DNA of 64,000 bases, taken from NCBI GenBank assembly GCA_947632405.1, contig CANRPE010000002.1, positions 1,254-65,253 on the forward strand, given 5' to 3'. Position 1 is the stretch's first letter. Every line of letters starts with the position of its first letter. The notes beneath the pieces were generated by a model. That model was not told the origin of the DNA. It was given only the letters and a program-made list of their open reading frames with translations, and did not search any database. This stretch comes from an uncultured Bacilli bacterium (GTDB lineage Bacteria; Bacillota_I; Bacilli_A; RF39; UBA660). Positions 43,042 through 49,916 of this stretch are shown piece after piece. Made by a program: the position numbers and the translations under genes.

Positions 43042-44841
43042 CTATTTTGTTATTGTATATGGATTTGTTTCACTACCTTCTCCATTTTTTATAACAATGT
43101 TTTTATCTAAATAACCAACTAATCTAATACCATTTGTTTCTTCACTATCAAATTTATTTGAAGTAATACCTAATGTTGCTGAATTAATATAAACTGAATC
43201 TTTAGATATTTCTTGATACCATGTACTAACACCATTAGTTGTATTAGCACTATATAAATCAAATACACTAGCTAAAGATAATTTAACATTATATTTTTTT
43301 GTATTTTTTTCTTGATTATATAAAACATAATCATTATATGTATTTACTGTTATTGCTTTAGAAACAAAATAAGTCGTTTTTATACTTTCAGATATTTGAT
43401 TTACAATTTTATAAGCAACATTATTTTTTCTAGTTGGATTATATGGTGTTAACTTAGAATCATATTTAGTATAATAACCCTCACCATTATTCTTTACTGG
43501 TTCTGTCATAATTACTTTTGTAGTTTCATCGTTTTCTTTTTCAATAACTCTCCAAAGATAACCTGAGTATGAGATATAACTTCCTGTATTAACATTTGAA
43601 ATTTTATTTCCTTTTTTAGAAGTATTCTTATTTCCCTTTAAAATATATGGATTAGAACTACTTCCATCTCCTGCAATTACTGTTGCATTCTCAGTAATAT
43701 TTAAAGCAGGTTTAATATTAAATATTTTGTTATTACTAAATTCTTTATAATTTGAAAAATTACTATTTGCTATATCAAAATAGGAAGATACCCAAGCTGT
43801 TTTTTTATCAGTCTTAGAATTAGAAGTCCAAACAGCTGTATCATTTACTATATTTGAAACACCATCACTATCTTTAGAATTATTATAATCTAAAATAGAA
43901 AGTAACCCTATTGGATTTTTCTTAGAATAGTTTGTACATTTTTTATATTCATCTGGATTTTTTACACTATCAATGCACCATTTACTATCTTTTTTAATAT
44001 AATCTTTAGCACTATTGCTTAATTTTTCATAGAAATAATCATTTAACCAAGAATTAATACCTTCATAATCTACTGATCCTAAAGCTTCTTTAGAAACAAC
44101 TTTTACACTATTATCTTCATTTATACCTATCATCTGGAATAAAATACCATCAAGTTTTACATAATTATTATTTTGATTTCCTTGATATATTTTTGTTTTA
44201 CCTGTATCTTCTTTAATAATATTATTTAATGTTTGTGTTACTTTAACTTTTCTTATTTTTACTGTTTTATTTTCTAAACTATCTTTAGCAGTATATGTAA
44301 CTTCATATGTACCAATTTTATTTACGTTTACTTTGCTTGTATCTACAGTAACATCATTGATACTCATTTTTCCATCACTATCATCAATAACACTTTTAAT
44401 ACCTTCATCTTCATAAGCATTACCTTGATAAACAACAACTTCATCATTACCTTTTAAAGTAATTGTTGGTCCTTCATGATCAATTTTTGATTTAAACATA
44501 CCACATTTTAAATAAACATTATATTCATATTCGCCATTTATTTTTCTAACTCTTGCCCAACTTTCATCTGACTCACAATATTTATTTGTATATGGCGCTC
44601 TTAAATCTTCTTTAATAAAGTCTTGTTTATATAAAGTTTGTAATGATACTTTTTTAATTTTAGTACCTGTTGGAAGCTTACTCTCATTTATTTCAAAATA
44701 TCGTTTTGTTGCTTCTAACATATTTTTTTCCATACTTTTAAATTTTAGTATTGGACTAACTACTAAAAACCACACTAATAAAACAACTACAAGAACTGTA
44801 ATCATTATTTTAAAATTCTTTTCATCCTTTTTTTTCTGCAT
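43042..44841 (-). CDS. N-terminally anchored surface protein (599 aa): shared N-module, DUF5011-type Ig domain and two WR[IV]I domains
   Basis: One TM and ATKRYFEINESKLP...YEYNVYLKCG. The Ig-like stretch is HEGPTITLKGND..GIKSVIDDSDGK..IGTYEVTYTAKDSLENKTVKIRKVKV. The two repeats end GDGSSSNPYILKG and GEGSETNPYTITK. Confidence 0.75.
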   Translation of the reverse strand: MQKKKDEKNFKIMITVLVVVLLVWFLVVSPILKFKSMEKNMLEATKRYFEINESKLPTGTKIKKVSLQTLYKQDFIKEDLRAPYTNKYCESDESWARVRKINGEYEYNVYLKCGMFKSKIDHEGPTITLKGNDEVVVYQGNAYEDEGIKSVIDDSDGKMSINDVTVDTSKVNVNKIGTYEVTYTAKDSLENKTVKIRKVKVTQTLNNIIKEDTGKTKIYQGNQNNNYVKLDGILFQMIGINEDNSVKVVSKEALGSVDYEGINSWLNDYFYEKLSNSAKDYIKKDSKWCIDSVKNPDEYKKCTNYSKKNPIGLLSILDYNNSKDSDGVSNIVNDTAVWTSNSKTDKKTAWVSSYFDIANSNFSNYKEFSNNKIFNIKPALNITENATVIAGDGSSSNPYILKGNKNTSKKGNKISNVNTGSYISYSGYLWRVIEKENDETTKVIMTEPVKNNGEGYYTKYDSKLTPYNPTRKNNVAYKIVNQISESIKTTYFVSKAITVNTYNDYVLYNQEKNTKKYNVKLSLASVFDLYSANTTNGVSTWYQEISKDSVYINSATLGITSNKFDSEETNGIRLVGYLDKNIVIKNGEGSETNPYTITK

Positions 44842-44905
44842 AATAAAATTCCCTTTCTCTTTATTTTAAACAATCTAATGTGCCTATTCTCATTATCTAT
44901 ATTTT

Positions 44906-44933
44906 ATTTTATCATATTGAGATAAATTGTCAA
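44906..44933 (-). promoter_or_regulatory. Promoter of the 599-sortase-990-Tad transcription unit
   Basis: The minus strand reads TTGACA (44933-44928), a 16-nt spacer, then TGATAAAAT (extended -10; TAAAAT at 44911-44906). Confidence 0.5.
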
Positions 44934-48141: not shown

Positions 48142-48158
48142 ATAAATTTCCTCCTACT

Positions 48159-49916
48159 TTATTTTGCAATTTCATATGGATTTAAACTTGTTCCATCTCC
48201 ACTTTCTATTGTAACATTTTTATCTAAATTTGCAACTAATCTAAGTGCTTTTATATCATTACTATTAAATTTATTACATATAACAATTCCTTGATAGTCC
48301 ATATAACAATATTGATTTTTTGAATAATCTTTAAACCAATAATCTTCTTTAATAGTTGTACTAAATAAATCATACATACTTGGTAAATTTAATTTTAATT
48401 TATAATAATTATCTTTTACTTTTTGTTTATAACCAATTACTGTTTCATATTTTGGATAATTAGTCTTTCTATTTACAAATAAATTTGTTTTAATATATTC
48501 ACTTATATTGTTTGCTAAAGCATAACCAATATTTTGTTTTTGAGTTGGATTAAAGTTAATTGTTTCACTATTACAAAATGAAGTATAATAGTTTTCACTA
48601 CCATTACTAACAACATAATCCATAATTATTTTAGTTGTTTCATCTTCTTCTACACCAATAACTCTCCAAGAATAACCTGAATAACTAATATATGAACCTA
48701 CTTTTACTTTCTTTACTGACGTTCCTGGTTTTATTTTTTGATAAGTACCCTTTAAAATATATGGATTAGTAGCTGAACCATCTCCTTTAACTACAGTAGC
48801 ATCCTTAATAATATTAATAGTAGGAATAATAATTTCATTATTAGTTAGTGGAACTTCAACAAAAGATTTTTTAAAATCATTATAATAATAACCAGTATTA
48901 GAATCTTTTTTATTATATACCAAAGATCCTATACTTAAATTAAACTCATTATTATCATTCTTAGAATTATAATAATCTAAAATAGAAGGTAACCCTACTG
49001 GATTCTTATCTGAATATTTTGTACATTTTGAATACTTACTTGGATCTTTTACATTATCAATACACCATTTACTATCTTTTTTAATATAATCTTTAGTACT
49101 ATTACTTAATTTTTCATAGAAATAATCATTTAACCAACTATCAATATTTTTATAATCAACAGCTGCTAAACCATCATTAGAAACTACTTTTACACTTTTA
49201 TCTTGATTAATTCCTAATATTTTAAATAAAATTCCATCTAATAATAAATAATTATTACTTTGATTTCCTTTATAAATATTTTTTTTATTTGTATCTTTTT
49301 CAACAATATGATTTAAAGTTTCTATAACTTTAACTTCTCTAACTTTAATTGTCTTATTATCTAAACTATCTTTTATAGTATAAGTAACTTGATAAGTTCC
49401 TGTTTTATTTACATTTACCTTACTACTATCTATAACTACTTCTTTTTTATCTATTTTTCCATCACTATCATCAATAACACTCTTAATACCTAATTCTTTA
49501 TACTTTTCTCCTCGATAAATAGTAATAGAATCTTTACCATTTAAAGTAATAACAGGTCCTTCATGATCAATCTTAGACTTAAAAATTCCACACTCTAAAT
49601 AAACATCATATTGATATTGATTACTTTTTTGTCTTACTTTTACAAAACTATTTTCTAAATTACATTTTTTATCACTTAGTAAAATTTTAAAATCATTATT
49701 AAAGTAATCATCATCATATATTTTCTTTAAAGATAAAGTTCTTATTTTCTTTCCTGTTGGTAATTTACTAGTATTAATTTCATAATATCTTTTTCCTGAA
49801 TTTAAAACTTCTTTTTCCATATTTTTAAATTTAAGTAGTGAAGAAATTATAAAAATAGCACTAACTATAATAATAATTAATATCACAATAAATATATTTT
49901 TTATTTTTTTCTTCAT
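48159..49916 (-). CDS. N-terminally anchored surface protein (585 aa), paralog of the 599-aa protein
   Basis: Same architecture as the 599-aa protein, with identical stretches such as NDYFYEKLSNS.KDYIKKDSKWCID and GIKSVIDDSDGK. The repeats end GDGSATNPYILKG and GDGTSLNPYEIAK. Confidence 0.75.
   Translation of the reverse strand: MKKKIKNIFIVILIIIIVSAIFIISSLLKFKNMEKEVLNSGKRYYEINTSKLPTGKKIRTLSLKKIYDDDYFNNDFKILLSDKKCNLENSFVKVRQKSNQYQYDVYLECGIFKSKIDHEGPVITLNGKDSITIYRGEKYKELGIKSVIDDSDGKIDKKEVVIDSSKVNVNKTGTYQVTYTIKDSLDNKTIKVREVKVIETLNHIVEKDTNKKNIYKGNQSNNYLLLDGILFKILGINQDKSVKVVSNDGLAAVDYKNIDSWLNDYFYEKLSNSTKDYIKKDSKWCIDNVKDPSKYSKCTKYSDKNPVGLPSILDYYNSKNDNNEFNLSIGSLVYNKKDSNTGYYYNDFKKSFVEVPLTNNEIIIPTINIIKDATVVKGDGSATNPYILKGTYQKIKPGTSVKKVKVGSYISYSGYSWRVIGVEEDETTKIIMDYVVSNGSENYYTSFCNSETINFNPTQKQNIGYALANNISEYIKTNLFVNRKTNYPKYETVIGYKQKVKDNYYKLKLNLPSMYDLFSTTIKEDYWFKDYSKNQYCYMDYQGIVICNKFNSNDIKALRLVANLDKNVTIESGDGTSLNPYEIAK

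Follow-up and report, generated by a model that had tools for sequence, protein, structure and literature searches.

Membrane-anchored proteins with divergent DUF6273 domains are encoded beside giant cysteine-rich proteins in a Tad-like/T4SS locus of uncultured gut Bacilli

Introduction

Known adhesins of Gram-positive conjugation systems are anchored to the cell wall through their C-terminus. They include Tie of pLS20 and PrgB of pCF10, and plasmids of the pLS20 family keep their adhesin gene at the head of an operon for a conjugation-type type IV secretion system (T4SS) (PMC8557374). Here we describe three related proteins of 599, 585 and 434 amino acids (aa) encoded at a Tad-like/T4SS locus of an uncultured RF39-type Bacilli bacterium, within a stretch of 64,000 nucleotides (positions 1,254 to 65,253 of contig CANRPE010000002.1, assembly GCA_947632405.1) that we call the window. 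The two larger proteins, referred to below as the ~600-aa proteins, are likewise encoded at the head of the locus, each together with a giant Cys-rich protein. Unlike Tie and PrgB, they show no thioester domain in Pfam scans and no C-terminal sorting signal, and a tblastn search of 72,556 plasmid records returned no relative except one match to their immunoglobulin (Ig)-like domain, in a Vibrio record.

The repeated domain of these proteins has the same fold as two described extracellular domains of binding type, the DUF6273 domain of the receptor-binding 'tentaclins' of gut phages and the domain at the N-terminus of the IgA peptidase of Thomasclavelia ramosa. In phage receptor-binding proteins the DUF6273 domain is described as resembling C-type lectins (PMC10743442). 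The T. ramosa peptidase cleaves IgA without this domain, to which no role has been assigned (PMC12402451). The window's proteins differ from both in that they escape the Pfam model, carry the domain behind a transmembrane (TM) anchor and are not targets of a diversity-generating retroelement (DGR). They place a poorly understood fold in a cellular setting that involves neither phage nor DGR. Intimin- and invasin-type adhesins resemble them in combining an anchor, an Ig-like spacer and a distal lectin-fold domain able to bind a protein partner, and weak fold matches to C-type-lectin-like domains recur in our comparisons. No homology to these adhesins is shown, however, and instead of a β-barrel anchor and an outer membrane there is a single N-terminal TM helix followed by a new module of 85 aa. 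Phages and toxin systems contain cassettes in which a tail-fibre tip travels with a downstream gene, or a polymorphic C-terminal domain with a partner gene. The likeness of our locus to these cassettes lies in the inheritance pattern only: a 3' domain and the next gene are exchanged as a unit, with the 5' part homogenised.

RF39-type gut Bacilli are common, genome-reduced and uncultured. The locus is among their largest conserved surface systems, and its head genes are unnamed by function. New here are the N-terminal module, the architecture, the strict pairing with a giant and the co-inheritance of the last domain with that giant; the domain types themselves were known.

Three homologous proteins share a divergent DUF6273 domain

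The 599-aa and 585-aa proteins are 51% identical over their full length. Because BLAST alone gave only a weak link for the 434-aa protein and for the internal repeats, we built profiles from 118 and 119 database homologues and compared them using hhalign. The first repeat of the large proteins (D1) aligned with the second (D2) at 96.3% probability (E = 1.5e-9, 164 columns), and the single repeat of the 434-aa protein aligned with D1 at 98.9% (E = 3.6e-17) and with D2 at 96.2% (E = 2.4e-9). The module that follows the TM helix in the 434-aa protein matched that of the 599-aa family at 98.0% (E = 1.9e-13), whereas three mismatched-module pairs used as negative controls scored 0.2–0.3%. This profile evidence confirmed that the three proteins are homologous, and the three-member family and domain layout proposed in the original prediction hold. 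A hidden Markov model of the post-TM module matched these three open reading frames (ORFs) only, out of 3173 six-frame ORFs of the genome, with E = 7.9e-5 for the 434-aa protein. Each repeat ends in a short motif. Loosened to G.G[STDN]...[PS]Y.[IVL], this motif has five matches genome-wide, none of them outside the three proteins, compared with 0.05 in shuffled sequences. Across relatives the Asn before the Pro is not conserved, and the general form is GxG[TS]xxxPYx[ILV]. We considered 'NPY' as a sortase B-type signal and rejected it because the motif also closes an internal domain and because the Asn and the fourth position vary. The 599-aa protein has 667 homologues, none of them named, and our database search returned no functional name for any homologue of the large proteins or of the 434-aa protein.

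The repeat is a divergent DUF6273 (PF19789) with a C-type-lectin-like fold. The window's three proteins gave no match to PF19789 at E ≤ 1 (gathering score 23.5 bits). Close homologues exceeded the gathering score (P0056, 32.7 bits; P0045, 27.0 bits), and DUF6273 matches at E ≤ 0.01 were found in 19 of 67 homologues of the ~600-aa family and in 29 of 74 family members of a second set. Using Foldseek against the PDB, we found a sole significant match of the 434-aa model, to the T. ramosa IgA peptidase structure 9qa6 (E = 9.8e-8, 277 columns), a construct that contains the DUF6273 N-terminal domain (PMC12402451). Among predicted viral structures, the top matches of this model were gut-phage proteins named DUF6273 (E = 6.3e-7 and 6.2e-6), followed more weakly by DUF1566 and C-type lectin proteins. 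The 434-aa model therefore has the same fold as proteins annotated as DUF6273. It also resembled CLEC9A, NKR-P1, LOX-1 and the C-terminal domain of Legionella Lcl, all at E above 0.1, and the 434-aa family profile gave one chance-level match only, to a membrane helix, when compared with PDB sequences. The original prediction had allowed that the shared motifs might belong to a common generic domain unrelated to the locus. In part they do: the repeated domain is the widespread DUF6273, and in other genera proteins of the 434-aa type are often encoded far from any T4SS.

Each ~600-aa gene is paired with a giant gene

We searched 121 sampled genomes of the order for full-length ~600-aa genes and giants; here and below, all genomes compared are metagenome-assembled genomes (MAGs). 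Of the 121 genomes, 27 contained the ~600-aa gene and 29 the giant. Every genome with a ~600-aa gene has a giant next to it, in equal copy number, including four genomes with two copies of each (G000, G091, G097 and G007). The two giant-only genomes gave one weak match and one hit at a contig start. Co-occurrence and matching copy number hold across 14 genera and bear out the predicted one-to-one pairing. The gene order was also invariant: in 28 loci and 42 further species loci, a gene for a 520-aa membrane protein (TM520) is always followed by the ~600-aa gene, a sortase gene and the giant gene. Additional pairs consist of a ~600-aa gene followed by a giant, without a sortase, and the 585-aa protein belongs to a genus-wide lineage of such extra pairs. 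Hence the giant, which had been placed immediately downstream of both large genes, directly follows the 585-aa gene but is separated from the 599-aa gene by the sortase, and the 585-aa gene is not the first of the cluster, as had been thought, since the conserved TM520 gene comes before it.

Trees of the ~600-aa proteins and of the giants recovered the same deep clades, which shows joint inheritance of the two genes. Evolution is about two times faster in the giants. The giants have N-termini resembling signal peptides and carry neither a C-terminal TM segment nor a sorting signal. We tried the sequence NTR[IL]G[FY]NNN, which ends both giants of the window (39285-39320 and 44986-45020), as a conserved docking tag and rejected it, because it is kept in close relatives only and not in other genera. 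Many relatives have instead a GCNN-type motif at a variable distance from the end.

The sortase keeps its position in every primary locus examined, and all 28 homologues compared share its His105 and Cys209. It is the most divergent of seven sortases in the genome (34.5 bits). Three of the other six are encoded directly downstream of a canonical substrate gene with a [VN]P[NQ]T[GSD] signal; in these loci (C15:31273-34624, C11:13264-15766 and C12:12870-14708) the substrates carry VPNTD, VPNTG or NPQTS, a TM segment and a basic tail. A regular-expression scan of the genome for C-terminal signals of LPXTG type, with a hydrophobic segment and a basic tail behind the motif, found these three substrates but none in the three proteins or the giants.

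The last domain follows the type of the giant

To compare the inheritance of individual domains, we used a genus set of 25 gene pairs, with clade labels that were taken from the giant tree and fixed before the domain trees were made, but after the identity matrix of the domains had been seen. Giants of type B form a clade (support 100/100) of 11 rows that includes all five sortase-less extra copies. In the tree of D2 (residues 436-599), ten of the 11 type-B rows formed a clade (98/95), as did type A2 (96/94), and keeping all 11 type-B rows together was not rejected (p = 0.37). In the tree of residues 1-405, by contrast, copies grouped by genome or species, and a type-B grouping was rejected (approximately unbiased test, p-AU = 3.6e-39). 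A smaller sequence set gave the same picture of D2 against the rest. The ~600-aa genes are mosaic, with the last domain following the type of the giant.

One genome, G091, shows the boundary within the gene. Its paralogues are 97–100% identical in the N-terminal module, the Ig-like domain and D1 and ~40–50% identical in D2, the domain with the lowest identity among copies. At the DNA level (locus L005, 5955-7253 and 12608-13909), the two copies share a tract of 1302 bp (99.5% identity) that begins near codon 3 and ends near codon 435, with no detectable similarity beyond. The sharp end of the tract near codon 435 indicates recent gene conversion or partial duplication. The exchanged unit consists of D2, the sortase where present and the giant, with the stalk homogenised separately; we include the sortase because its tree leans the same way as those of D2 and the giant.

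A predicted membrane anchor with a new N-terminal module

AlphaFold2 modelled the 599-aa protein with a mean predicted local distance difference test (pLDDT) score of 91.3 and a predicted template modelling (pTM) score of 0.79, and the 434-aa protein with a mean pLDDT of 87.1, in which residues 1-55 fall below 50. In the 599-aa model one long helix (2-51) precedes strands at 62-66, 95-101 and 104-110, and we predict that this helix spans the membrane and runs on into a small α/β module. The basic N-terminal tips of the 599-aa and 585-aa proteins fit an N-in, C-out topology. The post-TM module is ~85 aa long and, in family alignments, has two invariant Cys residues (C89 and C113 in the 599-aa protein). 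No Pfam family was assigned to it in our scan, its profile matched no chain among PDB sequences, and a weak match to RH3_dom (20.1 bits, under the cut-off) was found in one of 74 members only. A profile search of 1.84 billion representative proteins returned 1779 clusters at E ≤ 0.001. In the best 150 of these the match was always near the N-terminus, in proteins of ~120–610 aa. Because of this N-terminal position and the lack of Pfam and PDB matches, the module is an undescribed N-terminal anchor domain. The Ig-like domain PF16403 follows in both large proteins (54.4 and 53.7 bits, over the gathering score of 27 bits) and is present in 67 of 67 family members and absent from the 434-aa protein; PDB fold matches for this part of the 599-aa model were Big_3-type and other Ig-like domains.

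A candidate two-part adhesin and its alternatives

We propose that the 599-aa and 585-aa proteins are surface stalks with an N-in, C-out orientation, composed of a TM helix, a membrane-proximal module of disulfide type, an Ig-like spacer and two DUF6273 binding domains. D2 would be the specificity module that docks the cognate giant encoded downstream, which has a predicted Sec-type signal peptide but lacks an anchor, and the pair would form a two-part surface adhesin of the Tad-like/T4SS organelle, encoded at the head of its locus. We give this reading, in which both docking by D2 and the adhesin role are what we infer, a probability of roughly 45%. The sortase belongs to the same exchangeable block. 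The shared travel of D2 and the giant offers a hypothesis for how unanchored giants could be held on the cell and diversified. Of the roles suggested in the original prediction, that of an anchor or adaptor gains indirect support from the co-inheritance of D2, and not of the rest of the gene, with the giant type. For a chaperone or usher we found nothing: a Pfam scan at E ≤ 1 contained no such family, and the model consists of a TM helix, an Ig-like domain and two lectin-fold domains. More tentatively, the adhesin may be an exchangeable two-component device, with a conserved stalk (TM helix, N-terminal module, Ig-like domain and D1) and a swappable D2 matched to the giant type. Lineages would vary the exposed side of a chromosomally inherited T4SS/Tad organelle in this way, with the block that extends from D2 to the giant being swapped or duplicated as a whole. 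The sortase might fix the pair, and gene conversion would keep the stalk uniform.

Several points weigh against docking by D2. D2 is the part of the gene nearest to the giant, and a recombination block of D2, sortase and giant would alone give the same trees; the sortase tree, which is poorly resolved, leans to the same types. D2 and the giant are also the fastest-evolving exposed parts, and shared outside pressure could drive their correlated divergence. The correlation that speaks for docking, in which identity in D2 follows giant identity best (r = 0.81, compared with 0.56–0.71 for the other domains), comes from a comparison over the whole family made without phylogenetic correction. The EPN, QPD and WND motifs of canonical Ca-dependent C-type lectins are absent from the three sequences as read, and therefore the ligand could be a glycan or a protein. 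Finally, the 434-aa type has the same domain without a giant partner, showing that the domain does not need one.

In the main rival explanation, possible if doubtful, the ~600-aa and 434-aa proteins act independently as adhesins or lectins, and their DUF6273 domains bind outside ligands such as glycans or proteins of other bacteria, host mucus or recipient cells. The giant would be a separate adhesin, with which D2 co-varies only by linkage within one exchangeable, fast-evolving block. Physical linkage by itself would account for the pattern as well, and the data are compatible with both readings. In phage tail proteins DUF6273 serves as a receptor-binding fold (PMC10743442), in line with our viral fold matches. 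The 434-aa type works without a giant and often away from the locus, and the tendency of the sortase between D2 and the giant to follow the giant types is what linkage would produce. An anchor followed by an Ig-like domain and a distal lectin fold is, moreover, the design of intimin- and invasin-type adhesins. Against this explanation stand the perfect co-occurrence and equal copy number across 14 genera, an extra duplicated unit that is exactly a ~600-aa gene and a giant, and a conversion tract that stops sharply at the start of D2. The proteins are unlikely to be minor pilins or pseudopilins of the Tad-like filament, with the post-TM module as pilin head and the Ig-like and lectin-fold domains at the tip. 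Such an assignment would suit the long N-terminal helix and the small sheet with a Cys pair that follows it, the shared operon with a Tad-type ATPase, platform genes and RcpC, and the presence of the module at the head of proteins of 120–610 aa, some perhaps fragments. However, none of the three N-termini has a class III signal peptide (Gly/Phe-x-x-x-Glu), the 434-aa protein has a cytoplasmic tail of ~57 aa before its TM helix, and none of the 50 best PDB fold matches of the 599-aa or the 434-aa model is a pilin. The lack of any PDB chain matching the module profile, its lack of relation to the neighbouring DUF5411 protein and the frequent location of 434-type genes far from pilus genes also argue against a pilin.

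It is very unlikely that the sortase links the ~600-aa protein covalently to its giant or to the cell wall, with GxG[TS]xxxPYx[ILV]x[KD] as an unusual signal that needs no C-terminal TM segment, the N-terminus being already held in the membrane. The ~600-aa gene stands to its sortase as the canonical substrate genes stand to three of the six other sortases, the catalytic His and Cys are invariant, and the ~600-aa proteins end 2–3 residues past the motif. Yet the same motif ends the internal D1 and the sortase-less 434-aa protein, and in the models it forms the final strand of the fold. Thr is not conserved at its fourth position, there is no hydrophobic or basic tail behind it, and the extra pairs have no sortase at all. 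Least credible is the idea that a DGR targets the DUF6273 domains and so accounts for how far D2 has diverged. It has precedent in gut phages, in which DUF6273 domains are DGR targets (PMC10743442), and contig C3 of this genome carries both a reverse transcriptase and a template-like repeat. The 106-bp template-like stretch, however, matches the 3' ends of an unrelated family of ~333-aa proteins and none of our three genes, which refutes the idea for this genome short of a second, undetected element.

The probable DGR itself is located outside the window, in the region C3:14400-21300. Its parts are an ORF for the reverse transcriptase (C3:17921-19054), a pair of small ORFs upstream of it and the 106-bp stretch (C3:16749-16854), which matches the 3' ends of dozens of genes for the ~333-aa surface proteins at 72–84% identity on many contigs. 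A 180-aa gene in the window (32578-33120) has the N-terminus of the same family.

The 434-aa type is widespread in the order

Genes of the 434-aa type occur in ~62 of the 121 genomes and are thus commoner than the ~600-aa gene. In 14 sampled genomes the gene shares its strand with the ~600-aa gene and follows it at a distance of 20–23 kb downstream, and in the window's own genome the distance is ~24 kb, so bracketing of the cluster by family members, seen at first in the window, extends to 15 genomes including its own. Three more genomes have the gene ~10 kb downstream, and in G102 it is upstream of the module; in other genera it is found among housekeeping genes with no T4SS nearby. In the window the gene starts 20 nt past the end of VirD4. 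The 434-aa protein follows the design of the large proteins with a single domain, is here probably co-transcribed after VirD4 and most likely acts as an independent surface binder.

Genomic setting and gene order

The host assembly comprises 54 contigs and 1.35 Mb, and the window has a G+C content of ~25%. The public relatives, all of them MAGs, carry the labels Bacilli, Tenericutes or Erysipelotrichaceae and come from the guts of humans, rabbits, mice, ruminants and chickens. This Bacilli-type locus is also present in four public MAG records labelled Muribaculaceae (Bacteroidota; L049, L070, L073 and L075), which suggests mislabelled or mixed bins. Read in transcriptional order, the head of the locus encodes the 520-aa membrane protein, the 585-aa protein, the 1051-aa giant, the 599-aa protein, the sortase, the 990-aa giant and a DUF5411 protein. 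RcpC, a Tad-type ATPase with two platform-like genes and further small genes come next, followed by T4SS pilin-like, VirB6-like, VirB3-like and split VirB4 genes, a cell-wall hydrolase, a lipoprotein, VirD4 and the 434-aa protein. Coordinates and the basis of each assignment are given in Table 1.

Table 1. Features of the ~600-aa, 434-aa and giant genes and their neighbours in the window
Feature	Positions	Strand	Basis
599-aa type II membrane protein ('P600' type; sortase follows)	43042..44841	-	ORF, translation, AlphaFold2 model
599-aa protein, aa 1-122: short basic cytoplasmic tip, predicted TM helix, post-TM module (C89, C113)	44476..44841	-	model and family alignments
599-aa protein, aa 123-203: Ig-like PF16403	44233..44475	-	Pfam E 1.4e-14; PDB fold matches
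599-aa protein, aa 204-405: D1 (divergent DUF6273), end GDGSSSNPYIL	43627..44232	-	hhalign to D2 and 434-aa domain
599-aa protein, aa 406-599: D2, most divergent copy, membrane-distal in chain, end GEGSETNPYTITK	43045..43626	-	hhalign
585-aa paralogue (giant directly next, without sortase)	48159..49916	-	51% identity to 599-aa protein; Pfam PF16403
585-aa protein: N-terminal module	49563-49916	-	
585-aa protein: Ig-like domain	49320-49562	-	
585-aa protein: D1	48744-49319	-	
585-aa protein: D2	48162-48743	-	
434-aa paralogue	17960..19264	-	translation, model, hhalign, fold matches
434-aa protein, aa 1-57: disordered acidic/Asn-rich cytoplasmic tail		-	
434-aa protein, aa 58-88: TM		-	
434-aa protein, aa 89-176: post-TM module	18737-19000	-	
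434-aa protein, aa 177-434: one DUF6273-like domain	17963-18736	-	
Giant Cys-rich secreted protein, 1051 aa, 34 Cys, type B, partner of 585-aa gene	44986..48141	-	giant trees
Giant Cys-rich secreted protein, 990 aa, 30 Cys, type A, partner of 599-aa gene	39285..42257	-	giant trees
Sortase between 599-aa gene and 990-aa giant	42250..43029	-	Pfam PF04203, E 7e-9
520-aa membrane protein (TM520), conserved first gene of module	49927..51489	-	weak DUF4352 match, Pfam E 9.6e-5, under curated cut-off; synteny
Promoter-like site TTGACA, 16 nt, TG-TAAAAT	44906..44933	-	consensus match only: 11/12 positions and extended -10 TG

The promoter-like site falls in the sole sizeable gap of the head operon (144 nt), directly in front of the 599-aa gene. 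The gene at 52073-52600, which is two genes upstream from the start of the module, encodes an N-terminally anchored protein of 175 aa that contains a CTASDTDC stretch, and several relatives have it in the same place. Between the gene for a 328-aa protein and the T4SS pilin-like genes (29472-33120) lie the 180-aa surface-family gene, a gene for a 521-aa FAD-type protein and a gene for a 500-aa membrane protein. These three genes look like an insertion, because in genome G102 the pilin-like genes come directly after the homologue of the 328-aa gene.

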